Source: Escherichia phage vB_EcoM_VR20. From it: 64,000 bases of DNA. Both the position numbers and the translations under genes were made by a program. The stretch lies in the sequence record NC_028894.1; one strand, written 5' to 3'. Below, in pieces: positions 5,951-41,109 of the stretch (positions within the stretch are counted from its first letter, which is position 1; each line of letters starts with the position of its first letter). Under the pieces are notes generated by a model that saw nothing but the letters and a program-made list of their open reading frames with translations, was not told the origin of the DNA and did not search any database.

Positions 5951-6000
5951 TCATCAGTAGTTGATGGGATAATGATACACCATTCAAAGGGGCTTGTACA
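5951..6000 (-). promoter_or_regulatory. Class I early-promoter/leader cassette
   Basis: TGTACA, ~17 bp, TGTATCATTATCCCATCAACTA...GAGGAAAA-ATG. Confidence 0.45.
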
Positions 6001-21716: not shown

Positions 21717-22167
21717 AATCCACCACTATCAAATCAATGTCAGGAGTAAACATATCAATTAACCGGGAAACCTTATCCCAATCACCACCTGCAATACCAC
21801 AGCCAATCCTGGGAATATAAATCACGGGCTTGAACAAAAGTGATTCTGCTTGTCGATTTAATTCTATCATGCAATTTAATAAAGCACCATAATCCAGATT
21901 TGGACCCGGTTCATACTGGGTATAAAGGTTATAGCACATACCAAATCCAGTTGGCTTATGTTTAAAAACGATAGACATATCACCGAGTTTTTCTCGGGAA
22001 CCGTATTCAGTTGATGTTTTATCCATTTCTAAAATTTTTGGGTAAGCCTTTGCCAGTTGGCCAGCAACGCCTGACCCCATTGTATGGAAGCAGTTACAGC
22101 CATGAGCTATGATGTTTCCTTCGAGAAAGAGGGCGACGATATCGCCCTTAATATAGTTAACAATCAT
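21703..22167 (-). CDS. Macro-domain protein (ADP-ribose binding/processing)
   Basis: 154 aa; GDIVALFLEGNIIAHGCNCFHTMGSGVAGQLAKAYP and later GCGIAGGDW match macro-domain glycine-rich motifs. Confidence 0.6.
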   Translation of the reverse strand: MIVNYIKGDIVALFLEGNIIAHGCNCFHTMGSGVAGQLAKAYPKILEMDKTSTEYGSREKLGDMSIVFKHKPTGFGMCYNLYTQYEPGPNLDYGALLNCMIELNRQAESLLFKPVIYIPRIGCGIAGGDWDKVSRLIDMFTPDIDLIVVDYESN

Positions 22168-22523
22168 TTAGAGTTCAATCCTCTGTTATAGGAATCGACT
22201 AACCTGTCAACCATACTGGTACAGGCCGCTTTATATTTGGCACTCGACAGAATACAATCCATTTCAAATAGTTTCTTTTCATATTTGTTAGATAAAGTAC
22301 TCTTTTTCATAAGAGTGTGTTCAACATCATTTTGACCGTCTTTATAGGCAGCAGTGAGTTTGGCACTGAACTGGATTATACAATCCACATTGCTTGATGC
22401 GCAATAATCTTTGGCCGTCCTCGTTGCATATTCTACGATGCTGTTGTTGTCGACGCTCTGTACTGAAGCTATTCCTCCCGTGCTGAATACTAACCCCATG
22501 GCTAAAGTTATGACTCTTACCAT
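22164..22523 (-). CDS. Small secreted protein (vs-position)
   Basis: 119 aa; signal-peptide-like MVRVITLAMGLVFSTGGIASVQS; identity with T4 vs not verified. Confidence 0.4.
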   Translation of the reverse strand: MVRVITLAMGLVFSTGGIASVQSVDNNSIVEYATRTAKDYCASSNVDCIIQFSAKLTAAYKDGQNDVEHTLMKKSTLSNKYEKKLFEMDCILSSAKYKAACTSMVDRLVDSYNRGLNSK

Positions 22524-23066
22524 TTAATCCACCATTTTTAATAGGCCTCGTGATTTTAAGTAGTTAGCTTTTTCTAGGACCTGCGAAGCATATGTATTTC
22601 CAGCTTTCACATTCCACCCTGCATTATATGATGATAGTGTTTTTCTTATGTCCCCCTTGTGAATGTTCAACCAATATGAAAGCTCAATATAGGCCCAGCG
22701 CGCGCTGTTTTCTCTCTTGCTTATCATCTTGATTATTTCTTTATCTGTCATTGTCCACCCAACCTGTTTTACACGCTCGCGTACGGTTGGAAGATAATTT
22801 TGGAATATACCATATGCATGATGCTTATCTTTATTTAATCCTGTATTAACACCAGCAGATGATTCCTGCCAGGTTAAACCAGCCATGATATATCCCAAAC
22901 CATTATGTTGGTGCGGATTTTCTTTGTACTTACCATTTTTCTGGAACTGTTCTCCAAACGCATAAGCATATTGAAGATTTTCCATCTGTTCATTACTGAA
23001 AGTAGGCTCTACGCTATGGGCAGACATACTAACTGTCAATAGTAAGGTGGCGATTACTTTTTTCAT
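22524..23066 (-). CDS. Secreted protein, possible lytic transglycosylase-like (vs.1-position)
   Basis: 180 aa; signal peptide MKKVIATLLLTVSMSAHS; E-S containing TWQESS segment; functional call weak. Confidence 0.4.
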   Translation of the reverse strand: MKKVIATLLLTVSMSAHSVEPTFSNEQMENLQYAYAFGEQFQKNGKYKENPHQHNGLGYIMAGLTWQESSAGVNTGLNKDKHHAYGIFQNYLPTVRERVKQVGWTMTDKEIIKMISKRENSARWAYIELSYWLNIHKGDIRKTLSSYNAGWNVKAGNTYASQVLEKANYLKSRGLLKMVD

Positions 23067-23076
23067 GAATTCCTCA

Positions 23077-23535
23077 CTAGATATAAATCACTTTTGTGCT
23101 AATTTTTCCTTCCAGACGATTAGAGTTAACAAACGCCATACGACAACACATGGTTGGAGACTTCCCAGGTAATGCCGGGTTAACTGTCATTCCTAACCAT
23201 AGGTTCTTGTCTGTGATTTCCAGACGAAGTGGACGGTAGTTCACATTCGGGTCAATTTGTGCTTCAACTTCTGGAAGCGGTTCCATTTTTAAGAATTCAA
23301 CAATTTCTTTTACATGTGGTGTGATTTTTCCAAACAAGTCAAAAACATATTGTTCGTCAATTTCACGTTGGATTGCACGGTCCAACAGGTGTGGACTGTA
23401 CTTAATGAAGAATGCTTCAAGGCCTGCTTCTTTACAAGCCTTGTTGATAGCATTATTAATTTTGAGGAACTCCGTTTCAAAAATACGACGAAGTTTATTG
23501 CGGCGAATGTAAACACTTGAATCAATAGTAGTCAT
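23077..23535 (-). CDS. regB: Endoribonuclease RegB
   Basis: 152 aa from internal Met; VYIRRNKLRR...YSPHLLDRAIQREIDEQYVFDLF...LEITDKNLWLG...CRMAFVNSNRL matches T4 RegB. Confidence 0.8.
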   Translation of the reverse strand: MTTIDSSVYIRRNKLRRIFETEFLKINNAINKACKEAGLEAFFIKYSPHLLDRAIQREIDEQYVFDLFGKITPHVKEIVEFLKMEPLPEVEAQIDPNVNYRPLRLEITDKNLWLGMTVNPALPGKSPTMCCRMAFVNSNRLEGKISTKVIYI

Positions 23536-23554
23536 GATTATCTCCTTTTGTTTG

Positions 23555-24171
<617 letters not shown>

Positions 24172-24175
<4 letters not shown>

Positions 24176-24405
24176 TTCACTTCCTCGCCAGTTGCGATAT
24201 CATATTCTACCAAACGAAGGCCATCAGTCCAACCTTGCACGGAGATATAGGTAGTCGGGTAAACAATTTCTTTACCATTCCATTGGCCACCGTCCCAGCA
24301 TTCCATAAAGCCTTGTTCGCCCTGTTCGTGGAACCAGTCAACAAACATCTTCAGAGCTTCATCAGAGCCTTCAATTGTCAATTTAGACATATTTTTTCCA
24401 GTCAC
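24172..24405 (-). CDS. Hypothetical protein
   Basis: 77 aa ORF. Confidence 0.35.
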
Positions 24406-24682
24406 TAATTAATCGCACATCCTGGTCATAGGTCAGGAGGCTACGAGTGATAATACCCTTACAAGGTCCAGAAATAAATTCCAGAGTAAAGTAAGGAACC
24501 AACTTCATCAAGCGAATACTCGGAGCAGTGCAACGAAATCTGGACCCAACAAAAGGTCCAGACAAAAACACATACTCAAAGAAATTTGCTTTATTAAAGA
24601 TTTCAAAATTCTTTACGAAATCTTCAGACCTAACTTTTGGAATAAAATAGATTTGGTCAAAAAGCTCTTCATGGGTCATCAT
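24383..24682 (-). CDS. Hypothetical protein
   Basis: 99 aa ORF. Confidence 0.35.
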   Translation of the reverse strand: MMTHEELFDQIYFIPKVRSEDFVKNFEIFNKANFFEYVFLSGPFVGSRFRCTAPSIRLMKLVPYFTLEFISGPCKGIITRSLLTYDQDVRLISDWKKYV

Positions 24683-25206
24683 TGCATTCCTATCACAAAG
24701 AATAACGGCAAAGGCTTATCACCTTGACACATAAATTTATTCATCATTACCTGATAAGCTTCATAGAACTTATCCATTGCAGGGAGGCGAATAGGTTCTT
24801 CAATAATGATTAAAAGACGCGTAAAACGCAATCCACGGTACTTATGGAAATTATCTTCATCAAGGAAACTGCGTACAGTATCATAGACAACGAATCCAGG
24901 TCGCTCAACATTAAGATGTGGTTGTGCCTTAGAAACCCGCTTTATTATATTACAGATTTCTCGTGAGCGATGCGAAGAACTCGACATAACAATCACATCA
25001 TTACCTTTGGAAACCCAATCCGCAGCAAACTGCGCAATGGCACTTGTTTTACCTGTTTGTCGTCCACCGTCAAGTCTAAGGGTACCAAACTCTTGCATTC
25101 TTGAAGCTGGTTCATACCAGGTGTATTGGTCTGAATCTAAACGTTCAATGGCGCGTTCAGCGAAGGCGTGCATTAAGGTTAGATAAATGGGAGTTAAAAA
25201 TTTCAT
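24679..25206 (-). CDS. Small P-loop NTPase
   Basis: 175 aa; Walker A GGRQTGKTSA and Walker-B-like LLIIIEEP. Confidence 0.5.
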   Translation of the reverse strand: MKFLTPIYLTLMHAFAERAIERLDSDQYTWYEPASRMQEFGTLRLDGGRQTGKTSAIAQFAADWVSKGNDVIVMSSSSHRSREICNIIKRVSKAQPHLNVERPGFVVYDTVRSFLDEDNFHKYRGLRFTRLLIIIEEPIRLPAMDKFYEAYQVMMNKFMCQGDKPLPLFFVIGMQ

Positions 25207-25366
25207 AGTTGTCTCTTAGTTGTGGGGCCATTCCTTGGCACATAATTCGTCCATGTATCCGTATGTAAACCCTTTACCGCACTTGGGCTCGACCTTATTA
25301 CAGGTAGGGAAAGGCCCATCACTCAGAGGACGCGACGTTCATGAGGAGAGGGTCGGCTTGCCTTTA

Positions 25367-25666
25367 TTAGAAAGAACCAGAGCCTTTAATTGTGTTCTGG
25401 CGACCTTTATTTTCTAATTCAGAATGGTCAATTTCATATGCTTGTGCTACGCCAAAGGCCTTTTTAACTTTAGCTAAAGAACCTTTAGATGTAACAATAT
25501 TAAAAGTATTACCTTTAGTAAAATCAACCAAATCCACTTGTACACCTTGTTTACCGAGGCTTGCGACAATAGCATCAACATATTGTTGGTCTAAATTGCC
25601 CTGGACTCCGATTTGAAATGCTTTAGGAGCTTTAGCTTCTGTGATAAATTCTTGATAAGTTTTCAT
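25367..25666 (-). CDS. Internal-protein-like ORF with capsid targeting sequence
   Basis: 99 aa; N-terminus MKTYQEFITE (CTS-like) with I-x-E site. Confidence 0.55.
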   Translation of the reverse strand: MKTYQEFITEAKAPKAFQIGVQGNLDQQYVDAIVASLGKQGVQVDLVDFTKGNTFNIVTSKGSLAKVKKAFGVAQAYEIDHSELENKGRQNTIKGSGSF

Positions 25667-25674
25667 TTATTCTC

Positions 25675-25725
25675 TCCAAGTTGATGGGATAATTATGCAC
25701 TATCCCATCAAAAAGTAAACAGTTA
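25675..25725 (-). promoter_or_regulatory. Class I early-promoter/leader cassette
   Basis: GTTTAC-17bp-TGCATAATTATCCCATCAACTTGGAGAGAA; inverted repeat GATGGGATA..TATCCCATC around -10. Confidence 0.5.
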
Positions 25726-25986
25726 TGCTTTACCGCCAGAAACAATACCAAAGGTCTCAAAGTCCCATTCAATATCGTCAACATCAACTTTCTTACCAGC
25801 AACCACGAATGCGATTTCGCGACGTTTTGCATAGGTGACAATTTCTTTACCATCACCGCCAAAGAAAGAATAACCATTGCGCTTCATGGTGCCAAAGTCT
25901 TCAGCATCACCAGCAAACGCGCGGACTTTAAAGGAACCAGCAGGAGCTTTAGCAGATTCAGTAATAAATTCTTGATAAGTTTTCAT
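25723..25986 (-). CDS. Internal-protein-like ORF with capsid targeting sequence
   Basis: 87 aa; N-terminus MKTYQEFITES. Confidence 0.55.
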   Translation of the reverse strand: MKTYQEFITESAKAPAGSFKVRAFAGDAEDFGTMKRNGYSFFGGDGKEIVTYAKRREIAFVVAGKKVDVDDIEWDFETFGIVSGGKA

Positions 25987-25999
25987 AATGTCTCTTTAA

Positions 26000-26314
26000 T
26001 TAAGCTTTAGGGAAATCGCGCAAAAACGCATCATAAAGTTTATTACCAATACGACGGAATGCTTTTGCTGCATGAACGTTATCCGGGTTTGCAATTTTAA
26101 TCTGCATTACATGACTACCCGCCCATGATTTAGCTTCGTCATAATAACCTTTAATTTCTTTAATAGTCTTGCGTTTGCCGCCAGGACCATCAACAGTAAT
26201 TTTCCACGAACCCGTGCTTGTTTCACTTGGTGGGGTTAATTGTTCAATCCAGACATAACCGCCTTCAACACGTTTTTGGGTGGATTCAGTAATAAATTCT
26301 TGATAAGTTTTCAT
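26000..26314 (-). CDS. Internal-protein-like ORF with capsid targeting sequence
   Basis: Start taken at internal Met giving MKTYQEFITEST...; 104 aa. Confidence 0.5.
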   Translation of the reverse strand: MKTYQEFITESTQKRVEGGYVWIEQLTPPSETSTGSWKITVDGPGGKRKTIKEIKGYYDEAKSWAGSHVMQIKIANPDNVHAAKAFRRIGNKLYDAFLRDFPKA

Positions 26315-26362
26315 TTTATATTCCATTGTTTGGTTGATAAAATCATTATACAACCTTTTTAG

Positions 26363-26779
26363 TTAAGCGTACACAGCTTTCCCATAGTATTTGTACCAGG
26401 TAGGCTTTTGAGAAATTTTCTCATTCAATCTGGCTTGACTGATTTCAATTGACCAGATTGATGGTTGATAATCATTCTTCCATTCATCAGGAATATCATT
26501 TAAATCTTGGGTAGAAATATCTTTTATGTTAAACCCTCGCTTTAAACATTCCGCAATAAGTTCTTGATGACGGTTTTTAAGGAACAAAAGTTTATCATAA
26601 AAGAAGGTGACATGACCAGTCCCTAAAAGAAAAGATGATGGGATTTTAAAGTCAGAAACCTTTTTACCATTTTGTACATGTTTGCGAACCGCACCAAACA
26701 CGCGAGGAAGCTCACGATATTCAGCCATAAGATGTTGGTCAGCAAGTTCAGATACCAGGGTTAAATTAATGCGAGTCAT
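26363..26779 (-). CDS. denV: Endonuclease V (pyrimidine-dimer DNA glycosylase) DenV
   Basis: 138 aa; [35 protein letters not shown]... nearly identical to T4 DenV. Confidence 0.9.
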
Positions 26780-26789
26780 GTTTGTTCCT

Positions 26790-26830
26790 CCAAGTAGTTG
26801 ATGGGATAATAATACATCAATACGAGGAGG
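26790..26830 (-). promoter_or_regulatory. Class I early-promoter/leader cassette
   Basis: TATTATTATCCCATCAACTACTTGGAGGAA upstream of denV. Confidence 0.45.
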
Positions 26831-26838
26831 TTGTAAAC

Positions 26839-27120
26839 TTATTTTGTGGAAGCAGCCGAGATATATTTTTCAAGACGCTGTTTCATCAGCGAGCCGTTCT
26901 TAGCGATTTCTTCCGGTTTATCGCACATACGCAATAGAGCTTCAAGCTTAGTGATATCAGATGTCCGCTCAAATTTGCGAGTATCTACCTTACTAGCAAG
27001 TTCGGAAATACGCGCTAACAGACTTTCGGCTTCTACCAAAGCTGTGCCCAGCTTAGTTGCAAATGTGTCAGTAGCTTCATTAAGAGTGGTCACGGTCAAA
27101 AATTCATTATAGGTTTTCAT
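26839..27120 (-). CDS. Internal-protein-like ORF with capsid targeting sequence
   Basis: 93 aa; N-terminus [15 protein letters not shown]. Confidence 0.5.
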
Positions 27121-27601
27121 ATGCTTTCCAAGTTCCTGTTTTAAATGTTGAGATTACACGTTTCGCTCGATTAGGTGTTTGTTTGTACCATTTGGATTGA
27201 GCCAGGTTAACAGCAGCTTCGTCCCAACGTTTCTGTTGAAGCAACCGAAGGGAGTTAGTAAACCCAGCAACGCCGGCTTCACCCATTTGGAAGACCATAT
27301 TAATCAGGGCACAGCGACGAACTTCGTCAAGACTATCATACACTGGTTTTAATTTAGCATTACGCATAACACTCGCACGTGCTTTTTCCACTGAACGGTT
27401 AAACAAGGTTTCAGCTTCAACCTGGGTTATGCGACCATTGCAGACGCGACCCATGAGCTTGTCGAGCTCGGCACGAGCAACATCTTTAGACGGGTTCTTA
27501 GTTATCAGTTGCCCGATACCGATGGTCCAAAAGCCTTCGGTATCTTTATACAAATCCAACTTACAACCTTCATCTATGCGTAACATTTCGAATATATTCA
27601 T
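27107..27601 (-). CDS. e: Endolysin (T4 lysozyme, gene e)
   Basis: 164 aa; [12 protein letters not shown]...[11 protein letters not shown]...[33 protein letters not shown] matches T4 lysozyme incl. E11/D20/T26. Confidence 0.9.
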
Positions 27602-32496: not shown

Positions 32497-32842
32497 TACG
32501 AACCTCCTTAATAAATTCTTCGGCACATTTAATTTTGTGCTCTTCTTGCAGGGAAACACATTTTTGTTCCCACTCTTTAACTCGTCCCCGATAACCTTTA
32601 TTCATATGATTTTGATGCCACACATTTATCAATACCATACACAGGACTGTAATAAAAGGAGCTGCAATTACTAGCGTCCAGGCGACTCCAACACTAATGA
32701 TATTCATATCCCCACAAAGCACCATCATTATAACCCCAACGATGCACATGGACAGAGCTCCAAATGGAGGCATAAGGTCTTTATCAATCTTGTCTGCGTA
32801 CACAAATTTTTCTGGTTTACTTGGCAGATATAACGTTCGCAT
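32483..32842 (-). CDS. Two-TM membrane protein, paralog of 32143..32496
   Basis: Start at internal Met MRTLYLPSK with AAAGGGG SD; C-terminus ...EEFIKEVRNGTA. Confidence 0.45.
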   Translation of the reverse strand: MRTLYLPSKPEKFVYADKIDKDLMPPFGALSMCIVGVIMMVLCGDMNIISVGVAWTLVIAAPFITVLCMVLINVWHQNHMNKGYRGRVKEWEQKCVSLQEEHKIKCAEEFIKEVRNGTA

Positions 32843-33371
32843 TTTGAACCCCTTTAGCATATTCACGACATTCAGCAATAAAACGATTAAGCTTTCGTTT
32901 TTGTTTATGACTTTCTAATGTGTACTCAGACGTCAAATCAAGAAGCTCAGCTTTATCATAATTTTTAATATCAGTATAAGCTGGCCGGCGGTCAACCATT
33001 CCAAATACATCACCATTTTCTAGCGCCACATAACATACTAAATGGTAATCATCATCTGCCATATTAAGAAGTATACAATCATCGCTCTCGTTTAAAGCAT
33101 ATACTGAATAACGTAGTCCAGCGAATTCCACTCGTTGAATACCCAGATTTACATCAATAATTTCCAAGGCATCTGCGAAAGAAAGGTCTTCAGCTAAAGC
33201 AAAAATAAAAGGCAATTTTGTAGTATCGCCACGGCTAGTTGTTCTTCTTAAGAAATCATTGGAATAACCCAAGTCACCGCGGATTCTATAAAGAACTGTA
33301 TTAGTTTCAGTAGCAAGGCCACTACCGCCAAACCAGTCTACATTTGATATAAGGTCAGTATATAAGCTCAT
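32817..33371 (-). CDS. Hypothetical acidic protein with C-terminal FIAECRE motif
   Basis: 184 aa from MSLYTDLIS (GGAGAGGAG SD); C-terminal ...KLNRFIAECREYAKG. Confidence 0.45.
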   Translation of the reverse strand: MSLYTDLISNVDWFGGSGLATETNTVLYRIRGDLGYSNDFLRRTTSRGDTTKLPFIFALAEDLSFADALEIIDVNLGIQRVEFAGLRYSVYALNESDDCILLNMADDDYHLVCYVALENGDVFGMVDRRPAYTDIKNYDKAELLDLTSEYTLESHKQKRKLNRFIAECREYAKGVQNANVISAK

Positions 33372-33414
33372 AATTTTCTCCTCTCCCAATTAGGGGGCTT
33401 TGCCCCCCTTTATC

Positions 33415-34008
33415 TTACTTAAGTGAATTGATGTATTCTTCAATGTCAGCGGATGTGGTATCCACACCAACCTGTGGACCTTTGAAGGTTTCAACACGCA
33501 TCAGAGTGTCTTCAATATCAATCTTAGTCAATGCAGCGATTTCAACAACATCATCTGCGGTTGCAATACCTAGGGCAGACACCTTACGGGTTTCGCGGAT
33601 GTATTCCAGTTTAACAGCTAGTTCCTGACGAGAGTCATCCAGCTCTTTAACTTTCAATTTAATTTCATTACGCATTTCAACATAATCATCTGCCTTCTTA
33701 CGAAGTTGTTTAGCAGTGCGACGATACAGGAGACCCAGTTTAGCATGGACCTGGACATCAGCACCATCAGCAATCAGTTTACGAATTTCACGCTCTTTTG
33801 AAGCGGCGAGCTGGTCTTTTTCATTCGCTAGCTCGCGGATGCGTTTTTCTTCATTAACAGACTTAACGTGGGCAGTCTGGAGCTCAGTAATCTTATCAAT
33901 CAGGGTAGAAGCAGCTTTAGTATACTGGTCTTCAATAGACAGGTTTTGCGCCATTGCAGTACCCAGTTTGGAGCGGATAAATTCAACAAGTTTCTTTAAA
34001 GTATTCAT
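33415..34008 (-). CDS. Coiled-coil protein (possibly PspA/IM30-like)
   Basis: 197 aa, largely predicted helical with heptad-like charged repeats; family assignment unverified. Confidence 0.4.
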
Positions 34009-34083
34009 GGTATTTCCTTCAGATGGTTAAAGTTTTATTATCCAGGGAACATACTATCATGTTCCCAGAGGTATGTAAACATT

Positions 34084-34482
34084 TTATTTCATTTTTGCGA
34101 GGCAGATTTCATTGGCTTCCCATTGAGCTTGCTTAATAATAGCTTTGGATACAGGAACCTTTTGACCATAAGTTTTTGACGTTGAGAGAACAATATATTT
34201 GTTTGCCTCATTATGCCAGCCCCATGATTTTTCACCATGAGTACCTTTAACTACAGCTGACACCTCAACAGAACAACCATCAGCGCCAATCTTGGTATCA
34301 ACAATCCATTCATTTCGCTTAATTGCTTCTTCCAATGCTGCTGCTTCCGCCATCCAGTGTGTTTCAGGGTCTATTTGTTCAATCTCACGAGTTAACGCAG
34401 CTCCCAGGTCTTTTGCATATTTTTGTTGCTCTGGGGTTAATGAGTCATATAACTTTTTCATTTCTTTATCTTCAATATTCAT
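34084..34482 (-). CDS. Hypothetical protein
   Basis: 132 aa from MNIEDKEMKK with GAGGAAAATATT SD. Confidence 0.45.
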   Translation of the reverse strand: MNIEDKEMKKLYDSLTPEQQKYAKDLGAALTREIEQIDPETHWMAEAAALEEAIKRNEWIVDTKIGADGCSVEVSAVVKGTHGEKSWGWHNEANKYIVLSTSKTYGQKVPVSKAIIKQAQWEANEICLAKMK

Positions 34483-34516
34483 AATATTTTCCTCAAGGGG
34501 CTTTCGCCCCAATCAT

Positions 34517-34822
34517 TTAAATTTTGTTTTCCTGCACACCATAATAAAGTTCATCAGACACAATATCCAGGATGCGGCGAACATATTCATCATGGTATTG
34601 GCAGTCAAAATCAAATGCAACAGTAGTTTCCGCTTCACGAGTGAATTTAACTTGCACATTCAGGTGATTAACAACGTTAGTTAATTTATCAGTAAAGAAC
34701 TCTTTTGCTACCGCCTGTTGGACTTGCACTTTGAACTTGGTGTTACGAATCATATTTTCAGCAGATGTGAAATTACCAGTTTTATCAAAGTCAACAAGCG
34801 CCAGGTTGATGATGAATTTCAT
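34517..34822 (-). CDS. Hypothetical protein
   Basis: 101 aa ORF preceded by class II leader cassette. Confidence 0.45.
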   Translation of the reverse strand: MKFIINLALVDFDKTGNFTSAENMIRNTKFKVQVQQAVAKEFFTDKLTNVVNHLNVQVKFTREAETTVAFDFDCQYHDEYVRRILDIVSDELYYGVQENKI

Positions 34823-34824
34823 TT

Positions 34825-34900
34825 TATTCTCCAGTGTTTTATTTGGTAACTCAGTATGGAATCATTATGCCTTAAAGCAGGGGGCTTGTATACCCCCTTT
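34825..34900 (-). promoter_or_regulatory. Class II promoter/leader cassette with upstream GC hairpin
   Basis: GGGGGtatacaagCCCCC hairpin, then GCATAATGATTCCATACTGAGTTACCAAATAAAACACTGGAGAATAAA-ATG. Confidence 0.5.
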
Positions 34901-34904
34901 TTAA

Positions 34905-35348
34905 TTAAATTTCAAATTCTTTGCGGAAGTTGGAAGCATAAGACTGAACTGATGCTTTGTTGAATCCAAACTCACGCACAATCATATCAATAACAGCTCT
35001 GCGAGCAGCACCGTTAGACATATTAACAGTTCTGAACATATCATAGCATAAATCTTTGTTGCTCATACCGGAGCGTTTAGGTGCCTTACGTTCAGCTTTT
35101 GGTTCAGCTTTAGGAGTAGGTTTAACTTCTGGTTTAACCTGTCCATCATTCAGACCTTTAAAAATTTTACCTGCCAGAGTTGCCAGTTTAGCAGCTTCGC
35201 CACGAGTGATACCAAATACTGCCGGGTTAAATGAAATACCTTCAGCTGTCAGACGTTTGAAGAACATACGTGCTGCGGATTGTGCTTCAGCTTCAGAAGA
35301 GTTGTTTAATGCCAGTTTAACATACTTAACCAGTTTTGAAGTTTTCAT
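34905..35348 (-). CDS. Hypothetical protein, paralog family with conserved C-terminal domain
   Basis: 147 aa; C-terminus ...NGAARRAVIDMIVREFGFNKASVQSYASNFRK shared with 35801..36226; class II leader upstream. Confidence 0.5.
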   Translation of the reverse strand: MKTSKLVKYVKLALNNSSEAEAQSAARMFFKRLTAEGISFNPAVFGITRGEAAKLATLAGKIFKGLNDGQVKPEVKPTPKAEPKAERKAPKRSGMSNKDLCYDMFRTVNMSNGAARRAVIDMIVREFGFNKASVQSYASNFRKEFEI

Positions 35349-39514: not shown

Positions 39515-39570
39515 CCTCATTAGTTGATGGGATAATTATACACTATCCCATATCTAAAAGTACACTTATT
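39515..39570 (-). promoter_or_regulatory. Class I early-promoter/leader cassette
   Basis: GTGTAC-~18bp-TGTATAATTATCCCATCAACTAATGAGGAGAA; IR TGGGATAG..TATCCCA. Confidence 0.5.
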
Positions 39571-39799
39571 TTTTACGGAAAATTGATTTATACTGTTTAG
39601 CCCATTTCTCGATAACTTCTGCTGGACCCTGGATAACAAAATAGTCCCCAAACTCTTCACCGCCGAGCTGACCGTAATTATCTAAGGCGTCGCGGAGAGT
39701 TCCATAAGGCATTTCGCCCATTTTATCTTTCTTGCCGGTGTAAATGAATTGCACTTTAACATCAGCAGTTTCATTAATAAATTCTTGATAAGTTTTCAT
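39566..39799 (-). CDS. Internal-protein-like ORF with capsid targeting sequence
   Basis: 77 aa; MKTYQEFINETADV. Confidence 0.55.
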   Translation of the reverse strand: MKTYQEFINETADVKVQFIYTGKKDKMGEMPYGTLRDALDNYGQLGGEEFGDYFVIQGPAEVIEKWAKQYKSIFRKK

Positions 39800-39804
39800 G
39801 TTGT

Positions 39805-39860
39805 CTCCAGTAGTTGATGGGATAATTATACTGCAGTTATCCCATCACGTACACTAAATT
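39805..39860 (-). promoter_or_regulatory. Class I early-promoter/leader cassette
   Basis: GTGTAC...GATGGGATAACTGCAGTATAATTATCCCATCAACTACTGGAGACAAC-ATG. Confidence 0.5.
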
Positions 39861-40132
39861 TTTGTATATTGTCCAGCTTTAACTTTTTTCAGTTCACGAG
39901 GGCTTACCGCGTAAGTGAATGGAGCATTCCAGGAAGAACTGACTTTGTAACCTTTAGTCAACATCATTGCTGAAACTTTCTTGTTATCAGGACCGTTTTC
40001 GCCTTTAACAAGAAACAACTCAAATGCGCCACCATCAACCGGTTTGGCCTTAACCATCAGATGTCCTTTCAGGTCTTCCAGCATATCCGGGTGACTAATT
40101 GATTCGTTAATAAATTCTTGATAAGTTTTCAT
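39854..40132 (-). CDS. Internal-protein-like ORF with capsid targeting sequence
   Basis: 92 aa; MKTYQEFINESISHPDMLE. Confidence 0.55.
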   Translation of the reverse strand: MKTYQEFINESISHPDMLEDLKGHLMVKAKPVDGGAFELFLVKGENGPDNKKVSAMMLTKGYKVSSSWNAPFTYAVSPRELKKVKAGQYTKI

Positions 40133-40144
40133 TAGTAGCTCCAG

Positions 40145-40195
40145 TAGTTGATGGGATAATTATACTGCATTTATCCCATCGTGTACATTACATTT
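40145..40195 (-). promoter_or_regulatory. Class I early-promoter/leader cassette
   Basis: TGTACA...GATGGGATAAATGCAGTATAATTATCCCATCAACTACTGGAG. Confidence 0.5.
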
Positions 40196-40487
40196 TTGAA
40201 CCGCGAATCACGCCATAAGCTGCGAAGTCGTCAGTGATGTTCTTAGGGGTGTTTTTACCAGTTTCAATATATGCGATGCTGGATTTCTGACCAAATGAGG
40301 TAATTTTATTATAGTTAGAGTCAAGGAAAGTATAACCATTTTTACGCAGCTGGTCAAAGTCTTCAGCGTCGCCTTTACCTTTGAAGTCAACCCATTTGTA
40401 TGTGTTTTTCTTCTGAAGGCCCAGAGGCCAGGTTTTTGCTTCTGCCAGGTAATTATTTTCTACCAAAAATTCGTGGAGCGTTTGCAT
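40188..40487 (-). CDS. Internal-protein-like ORF with CTS-like N-terminus
   Basis: 99 aa; MQTLHEFLVENNYLAE. Confidence 0.45.
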   Translation of the reverse strand: MQTLHEFLVENNYLAEAKTWPLGLQKKNTYKWVDFKGKGDAEDFDQLRKNGYTFLDSNYNKITSFGQKSSIAYIETGKNTPKNITDDFAAYGVIRGSKM

Positions 40488-40495
40488 TTGAAATC

Positions 40496-40768
40496 CTATT
40501 TTAGATAAATTGCATATTTTTTATAACCAGCTGTCTCATGGCGGAGACCCTTGTCATTGGCAAAACGCTCAATGTTGTTGATTTGGTTCTGGTCAAGTTC
40601 AGAGATGTCAAACGCGAAAAAGTTGCGTTTGTTACCAATTGTTATATGGTCAGTTAAGTCAATGCTATACAAGTGATTGATATTGTCAATCATAGCTTTG
40701 ACTGCTTTACTAATTTTTACTTCTTCATTCAGTTGGGACTCGTTGAAAAGTTCATTAAAAGTTTTCAT
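40496..40768 (-). CDS. Internal-protein-like ORF with CTS-like N-terminus
   Basis: 90 aa; MKTFNELFNESQLNE. Confidence 0.45.
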   Translation of the reverse strand: MKTFNELFNESQLNEEVKISKAVKAMIDNINHLYSIDLTDHITIGNKRNFFAFDISELDQNQINNIERFANDKGLRHETAGYKKYAIYLK

Positions 40769-40776
40769 AAGAAACC

Positions 40777-41109
40777 TTATTTATACAGTTTAGCTAGTTC
40801 TTTACGTCCGCGAGCAGACATAATGAATTGTTCATCACCAATTTTGAAATAAGCCATACCGCCGTCAACAGCGATGCCAATTTCTTTAGTACCTTCTTTG
40901 CCTTTCCACTTACCACCAGATTTCAGGACAGCTTCAACTGCAGCTTTGGAATATTTGGACGTTTGAAAACGTTCATTACCAATCTGAAAGAAAACACCAT
41001 CTGCATTTTTGGATAAACCAAATTTCAGAGAGCCTTCACTATCATCAATTGATTTGGTCTCATTGATGGCGGATTCGGCTAAAAACTCGTTGTAAGTTTT
41101 GATGTTCAT
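40777..41109 (-). CDS. Internal-protein-like ORF with CTS-like N-terminus (ipI position)
   Basis: 110 aa; MNIKTYNEFLAESAINE; directly upstream of 57B. Confidence 0.5.
   Translation of the reverse strand: MNIKTYNEFLAESAINETKSIDDSEGSLKFGLSKNADGVFFQIGNERFQTSKYSKAAVEAVLKSGGKWKGKEGTKEIGIAVDGGMAYFKIGDEQFIMSARGRKELAKLYK

Follow-up and report, generated by a model that had tools for sequence, protein, structure and literature searches.

The naming of phage internal proteins as Ip, and the view of them as a diverse set that shares only a capsid targeting sequence, are said to go back to Repoila et al. in 1994, and Arbiol reportedly described in 2010 the PeSL (promoter-early stem-loop) shuffling elements of T4-like phages. 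Here we analyse a stretch of 64,000 nucleotides from Escherichia phage vB_EcoM_VR20 (NC_028894.1), called the window below, in which four small open reading frames (ORFs) beside denV and the lysozyme gene e begin with a T4-type capsid targeting sequence. Unless another genome is named, coordinates are those of this whole 64-kb stretch and not of any single feature.

The T-even internal proteins are described in reviews as a diverse defence-countering set with the capsid targeting sequence as sole common feature (PMC3012670, PMC9026906). In the T4 tag, positions 4 and 7 govern targeting and positions 8 and 10 govern processing, and the T4 decapeptide by itself packages foreign proteins (PMC9026906). 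Each of the three internal proteins of T4, Ip1, Ip2 and Ip3, blocks a GmrSD-type Type IV restriction enzyme of its own, and none protects against the enzyme of another (PMC12373910). A promoter/stem-loop shuffling model cites the ip locus (Comeau 2014, PMC4122927).

Internal head protein genes in the denV/e region

The window is 95.5% identical to Escherichia phage vB_EcoM_VR25, the closest sequenced genome, and phages SP18 and VR7 share 94-97% identity with it over part of its length; VR25, SP18 and VR7 are T4-like coliphages of the genus Gaprivervirus (Tevenvirinae). An earlier note on this DNA had picked out four ORFs with a T4-like tag, and these are indeed present at 25367-25666, 25723-25986, 26000-26314 and 26839-27120, all on the minus strand (cluster A). 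The gene order is vs.8 - ip7 - ip - ip10 - denV - ip5 - e, which places the ip genes in the denV/e region, one of the two ip loci of T4-like genomes. The same note rightly stated that T4 carries ipII and ipIII here, since these lie between denV and e; it also put the cluster upstream of e, but in the direction of transcription the cluster is downstream of it. The four ORFs are internal head protein (ip) genes of a Gaprivervirus phage and code for an Ip7 homologue, Ip10, an Ip5-like protein and one internal protein without a number. We regard it as highly probable, taking the reading as a whole, that their products would be packaged in the head and injected and would most likely block nucleases.

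The identity of the genes follows from their homologues. In the VR25 RefSeq record the four are labelled ip7, internal head protein, ip10 and ip5, and three of the four fall into PHROGs families called 'internal head protein'. The ip7 product (25367-25666, 99 residues; predicted mature form 89 residues, isoelectric point (pI) 9.3, cleavage at ITE10/A) matches phrog_2667 'internal head protein' (E 8e-43), is 46.7% identical to T2 ip7 and has homologues in 282 phage records. The unnumbered protein (25723-25986, 87 residues; predicted mature form 77 residues, pI 6.2) also matches phrog_2667 'internal head protein' (E 9e-21); its homologue is called 'internal head protein' in both VR25 and SP18, and 204 phage records contain one. 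The third protein (26000-26314, 104 residues from the ATG on the 26314 side; predicted mature form 94 residues, pI 9.7) belongs to an unnamed family, phrog_3966, is 100% identical to 'Ip10 [Shigella phage SP18]' and has homologues in 188 phage records. The fourth (26839-27120, 93 residues; a 15-residue propeptide ending at LNE15, predicted mature form 78 residues, pI 8.8) matches phrog_3499 'internal head protein' (E 2e-46), is 55% identical to T2 Ip5 and has homologues in 495 phage records. The Ip5, Ip7, Ip10 and unnumbered families are thus widespread (188-495 phage genomes each), and the phages that bear them infect Escherichia, Shigella, Klebsiella, Enterobacter, Salmonella and Yersinia.

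Beyond the tag, the bodies were said in the earlier note to be unrelated to each other. BLASTP, phmmer and profile-profile comparison agree, with no mutual similarity among the four tag-trimmed bodies by BLASTP or phmmer. Two possible pairings were considered and rejected. A distant paralogy of Ip7 with the 25723-25986 protein, both of which are in phrog_2667, received a probability of 0.3% from hhalign on tag-trimmed alignments, and Ip10 and the ORF at 40777-41109, which both match phrog_3966, show no pairwise signal. A profile and structure search of each body, proposed in the same note as a check, yielded PHROGs families and named Ip7, Ip10 and Ip5 homologues, but no relatives elsewhere: Pfam and NCBIfam scans of the four bodies gave nothing above threshold, and PDB sequence searches returned chance-level matches only.

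In the AlphaFold2 (AF2) model of Ip7 (predicted local distance difference test score, pLDDT, 74.7) the body is ferredoxin-like, and a fold search against viral models gave a single match, an Ip7 protein. The model of the 25723-25986 protein is of low confidence (pLDDT 63) and its fold is unreliable. When the Ip7 family profile was compared with 1.84 billion representative proteins, the matches were small proteins of T4-like phages together with long repeat proteins (HEAT, RTX adhesins), the latter of which we regard as spurious; on the basis of this search the family appears to be confined to the T4-like phage group. Among metagenomic relatives of Ip7, the pair P0030/P0031 comprises two short proteins that look like natural or assembly chimeras. 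One joins the N-terminal part of Ip7 to the C-terminus of Ip9, and the other joins the Ip7 tag plus 18 residues to the C-terminus of a vs.5-like protein (window 24172-24405); both could have arisen by deletion or recombination inside ip regions.

Two landmarks frame the Ip5-like gene. denV (26363-26779, minus strand) encodes the pyrimidine-dimer glycosylase (Pfam Pyr_excise, E 1e-15; phrog_1183) and is not an internal protein gene, and the conserved lysozyme gene e (Pfam Phage_lysozyme) occupies 27107-27601 on the same strand. The start of the Ip5-like gene overlaps the 3' end of e by 14 nucleotides (27107-27120). The same overlap is found in VR25 and in one Tequatrovirus, and CC31 and Kosakonia phage 305 have it with tagged bodies of unrelated sequence, which suggests translational coupling to e at that slot. 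The start of ip10 is ambiguous, with an in-frame ATG four codons upstream (MEYK-MKTY..., as annotated in SP18) and a TTG at 26353, 13 codons upstream; either longer start would make the tag internal instead of N-terminal.

The capsid targeting tag

Three of the cluster A ORFs open with MKTYQEFITE, which is identical at 9 of 10 positions to the MKTYQEFIAE decapeptide of T4 IPII and IPIII, and the fourth (26839-27120) opens with MKTYNEFL; Y4 and F7 occur in all four. The 30-nucleotide tag-coding sequence is present in 5 copies in the window (at most 3 mismatches), compared with 0 in 100 shuffles. An [I/L]-x-E motif had been placed after the decapeptide in the earlier note. The motif is there, but in three ORFs it lies within the decapeptide, as residues 8-10 (ITE10), and in the Ip5-like ORF it comprises residues 13-15 (LNE15), where T2 Ip5 also has [LI]-x-E (ITE15).

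The tags of 25723-25986 and 26000-26314 are identical at 30 of 30 nucleotides, and the DNA upstream of them is unrelated: one of the two tags is preceded by a 13-nucleotide intergenic gap and the other by a different promoter-like region. Nucleotide identity between tag copies drops from 0.90-1.00 in codons 1-10 to a background of 0.1-0.47 in codons 11-20. The diverged tags, MKTYNEFL in cluster A and MKTFNELF, MQTLHEFL and MNIKTYNEFL in a second cluster (see below), carry both synonymous and non-synonymous differences. In all of them positions 4 and 7 are occupied by hydrophobic or aromatic residues and the end is [L/I]-x-E; positions 4, 7, 8 and 10 are retained. In the family alignments of Ip7 and Ip10, M1, K2, T3, E6, F7 and E10 are invariant, and Y4 is kept in that of Ip10 as well. 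The tag is disordered in the AF2 model of Ip7 (pLDDT <50), whereas the body is folded.

Given that the identical tag stands behind unrelated upstream DNA, and that diverged copies keep the targeting and cleavage residues, the tag is selected as a protein-level signal and is more than a shared translation-initiation region. An explanation of the N-terminal similarity by translation initiation only, which the earlier note had allowed for, fails on the same evidence.

A second tagged cluster and cassette mobility

Cluster A is real, but it is one of two tagged clusters in the window. Five further tagged ORFs lie at 39566-41109, adjoining 57B, the locus equivalent to that of ipI, and the VR25 annotation there includes ip6 and ip9 among others; the window therefore holds nine tagged ORFs, compared with three in T4. 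All five are on the minus strand. They are an Ip6 family member (39566-39799), a cassette with no counterpart in VR25 (39854-40132), a paralogue of the unnumbered cluster A protein (40188-40487), an Ip9 family member (40496-40768), which is the only one of the second cluster behind a perfect late promoter TATAAATA, and an ORF whose tag is offset by two residues, MNIKTYNEF (40777-41109). Only one pair of paralogues is found among the nine bodies, 25723-25986 and 40188-40487 (E 7e-13), with an invariant GDAEDF...NGY.F.

The ip cassettes are mobile: they change slot, pass from one locus to the other and cross from genus to genus. Within the genus, ip5 is missing from SP18 and VR7, and the 3' end of e differs according to whether ip5 is present. 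VR25 lacks the 39854-40132 cassette through a 334-nucleotide indel, both junctions of which lie inside a repeated promoter-hairpin-leader-tag module; the indel region (39800-40187) is flanked by two near-identical modules of about 85 nucleotides (GTGTAC...GATGGGATAA...TATAATTATCCCATCAACTACTGGAG...ATGAAAACTTATCAAGAATTTATTAA). From this arrangement, the gain or loss of 39854-40132 looks like the outcome of recombination between the flanking repeats. Further afield, the T2 copies of ip5 and ip7 are found not at the denV/e locus but at that of 57B, in the interval that separates 57B from the tRNA genes. Ip10-like genes follow denV in CC31 and Kosakonia phage 305 and follow e in fGh-Ecl01, and Tequatroviruses have, directly after e, copies that are 93.6% identical to the Ip5-like gene of the window.

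The shared tag, in some copies together with the promoter, hairpin and leader, would supply the homology for recombination, which would add, delete and relocate bodies between slots, between both ip loci and between phage genera. Repeated early-promoter/stem-loop elements flank variable genes and the indel junctions fall in the repeats, as in PeSL-type arrangements, and the cassette pattern fits the promoter/stem-loop shuffling model.

Promoter-hairpin modules

The intergenic module upstream of ip7 (25667-25722, minus strand) consists of a -35-like GTTTAC, a 13-bp stem (UUGAUGGGAUAGU / AUUAUCCCAUCAA), a -10-like CATAAT situated in the loop and 3' arm of the stem, and the ribosome-binding site GGAG; the promoter-like match is TTTACT-N16-CATAAT. 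The hairpin has a folding energy of -21.3 kcal/mol (z -4.39). A second promoter-like module, upstream of denV (26780-26838, minus strand), reads TTTACA-N17-TATTAT followed by TATCCCATCAAC and GGAGG. The T4 genes ipI, ipII, ipIII and denV are preceded by the same layout with different stems.

A 16-nucleotide element, T-n-ATTATCCCATCAAC, occurs eight times in the window, always on the minus strand (at 5960, 19637, 23551, 25680, 26797, 39523, 39813 and 40147), compared with 0.08 expected. A GTTTAC or GTGTAC -35-like hexamer precedes it and a GGAG ribosome-binding site follows it, and the -10 is either part of the element or directly adjacent to it. The element is probably the -10 plus initial transcribed consensus of the phage early promoters. 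In ip cassettes the spacer is complementary to the element, giving a hairpin of 10-13 bp. Within cluster A the element is found only upstream of ip7 and denV. Since it also precedes untagged genes (denV and the ORFs adjoining 5960, 19637, 23551 and 39523), the tag and the leader are separable.

In the minimum free energy fold of a read-through RNA over 25660-25730, the ip7 hairpin is predicted to be longer, with CUUU base-paired to GGAG in the ribosome-binding site, and an RNA started from the promoter that the hairpin contains would have no 5' arm. This predicted pairing resembles the occlusion of the ribosome-binding site that is described as a control of T4 gene e. A comparison of the cluster region with Rfam gave no match, the 160-nucleotide interval from vs.8 to ip7 is no more stably folded than shuffled sequence (z -0.86), and no compositional anomaly was found in the cluster region.

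Predicted packaging and function

By analogy with T4, the four proteins may be expected to be packaged, cleaved and injected. The capsid targeting sequence (MKTYQEFITE or its 15-residue form) would bind the scaffolding core of the assembling prohead, and the gp21 prohead protease would cut after the Glu of [I/L]-x-E, leaving mature proteins of 77-94 residues within the head. These would stay with the head DNA and enter the next host with it, before phage gene expression, where each would bind and block one particular host defence nuclease. The necessary machinery is encoded in VR25, which has gp67, gp68, gp21, gp22 and gp23, and VR25 gp23 carries the T4-type maturation site LTE/AEIGGDHGY (slash, cut). 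The PHROGs and VR25 annotation and the reviews on T-even internal proteins are likewise in line with the earlier note, which had proposed for the ORFs a tagged, packaged, injected and possibly anti-defence class.

By the same analogy, the four proteins would most likely be specific inhibitors of host defence nucleases, although we consider the chances of an anti-defence role with such targets to be about even. Several observations weigh against a role as injected nuclease inhibitors on the T4 pattern. The cluster A bodies have no sequence similarity to T4 IPI, IPII or IPIII by BLASTP or phmmer, and neither in sequence nor in fold was a likeness to the GmrSD inhibitors IPI*, Ip2 or Ip3 found. 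The predicted Ip7 fold is a generic ferredoxin-like/RRM/ACT one with no pointer to a target. The gp21 and scaffold genes are outside the window, which ends in baseplate and tail genes, and the presence of gp21 is deduced from VR25. In the literature that could be searched, no virion proteomics of these proteins was found, and for VR7-, JS98- and SP18-type phages there was nothing usable; cluster A has no perfect late promoter TATAAATA. Furthermore, ip4-10 of T4-like phages (Tequatrovirus) gave no reproducible inhibition of 15 GmrSD variants (PMC12373910, Supplementary Fig. 9), and the set tested includes namesakes of three cluster A genes (PMC12373910). Finally, Gaprivervirus lacks gene 42 (hydroxymethylase) and the glucosyltransferases and keeps dCTPase, DenB and Alc: in VR25 (NC_028925) the interval from uvsX to imm (22052-27085) has neither gene 42 nor beta-gt, only a 167-residue hypothetical protein, and alpha-gt is missing between genes 47 and 55 (32665-35276), with the gp56 dCTPase retained.

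These last two points could bear on which nucleases are countered. With gene 42 and the glucosyltransferases absent and dCTPase, DenB and Alc present, some modification of cytosine is implied, and two papers have noted that Gaprivervirus must carry some non-canonical cytosine. Without hydroxymethylase or glucosyltransferase, a GmrSD enzyme specific for glucosylated hydroxymethylcytosine (glucosyl-hmC) may not be the relevant enemy, and the ip4-10 null result together with the differing cytosine modification means that the targets may differ from those of T4. Given that the genus has no genes for hmC or its glucosylation and yet nine tagged proteins are found in the window, and that ip4-10 failed against GmrSD, we tentatively suggest, as a possibility that we hold to be on the doubtful side, that the four proteins may counter defences other than glucosyl-hmC-specific Type IV enzymes. 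Such targets could be nucleases that recognise the Gaprivervirus cytosine modification, or unrelated defence systems; if true, this would extend the range of targets known for such injected proteins.

The same facts also lend themselves to an alternative, namely that the proteins are injected effectors whose target is not restriction at all, and which act instead on other defences or on host transcription or metabolism. The missing gene 42 and glucosyltransferases, with dCTPase, DenB and Alc in place, and the negative GmrSD tests of ip4-10 are both compatible with it, and T4 injects Alt, a non-restriction effector, along with its internal proteins (PMC9026906). We nevertheless think it rather unlikely, as Pfam and NCBIfam scans reveal no enzymatic domain, the mature proteins have just 77-94 residues, and all internal proteins with a known target inhibit a Type IV restriction enzyme (PMC12373910). 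The charge of the proteins invites a different explanation, in which they are packaged but serve mainly a structural or physical role in neutralisation of DNA charge, condensation, ejection or head assembly. In coordinate order the predicted pI values are 9.3, 6.2, 9.7 and 8.8, so that three of the four mature forms are basic (8.8-9.7), whereas the acidic to neutral body at pI 6.2 does not fit. The internal proteins of T4 touch the phosphates of the DNA through their lysines (PMC3012670), and in IPIII mutants heads assemble more slowly and bursts are smaller (PMC9026906); however, Ip3, the source of that assembly phenotype, is itself a specific GmrSD inhibitor (PMC12373910). Although a structural role would account for ip4-10 having no target found, it leaves unexplained why there are nine unrelated bodies, why they are present in some close relatives and absent from others, and why they are exchanged between genera, and we judge it improbable.

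Lastly, the common N-terminus could be only a duplicated leader, and the ORFs ordinary cytoplasmic early proteins that are not packaged. This would agree with the extension of the repeat, in some copies, upstream through the ribosome-binding site and promoter, and with the early type of the promoter-like elements in a cluster that has no perfect late promoter. It is contradicted by the identical tag of two ORFs behind unrelated upstream DNA, by the diverged tags, in which the functional residues are kept and [LI]-x-E invariably stands at the end, by the occurrence of the promoter element before untagged genes, and by the sufficiency of the T4 decapeptide for packaging foreign proteins (PMC9026906), and we give it hardly any credence. 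Inhibition of particular defence nucleases by injected internal proteins is the reading that we prefer.

Relation to known internal proteins

That cluster A encodes internal proteins is already known and ordinary, given that the Ip names go back to 1994 and that the genes are labelled accordingly in the RefSeq record of VR25, and the novelty implied in the earlier note is accordingly not supported. What is added here is a second cluster, one paralogue pair, evidence for the tag as a protein signal, the mobility of the cassettes and a prediction of the Ip7 fold. Because injected proteins act before phage gene expression, they would be among the factors that set the range of wild strains open to infection by a T4-like phage used in therapy. 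The known targets are limited to those of the three internal proteins of T4, and cluster A is a reasonable place to seek new anti-defence activities.

The intergenic modules resemble PeSL elements in having an early-type promoter and a stem-loop between cassettes and indel junctions inside the repeats (PMC4122927). Unlike PeSL, in which the stem lies upstream of the promoter, the stem in the window overlaps the promoter spacer and the -10, and the ip repeat runs on into the first 30 coding nucleotides.

Among described internal proteins, T4 IPII and IPIII are similar in the decapeptide (9 of 10 residues), the [I]-x-E motif, the denV/e region and the small, mostly basic mature proteins. They differ in that their bodies have no detectable similarity to those of cluster A, and in that three of the four cluster A genes fill the space from vs.8 to denV, in which T4 has no such gene. 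The T2, T6 and other T-even proteins Ip5, Ip7 and Ip10 are closer, with homologous bodies and propeptides of 15, 10 and 10 residues, respectively; however, T2 ip5 and ip7 occupy the other locus (57B/tRNA), and the Ip5 of the window is a diverged variant. With T4 IPI*/Ip1, Ip2 and Ip3, the proteins of the window would share the delivery route of tag, head and injection as well as the pattern of many unrelated small proteins, and, by analogy, these three appear to offer the best functional model for them.

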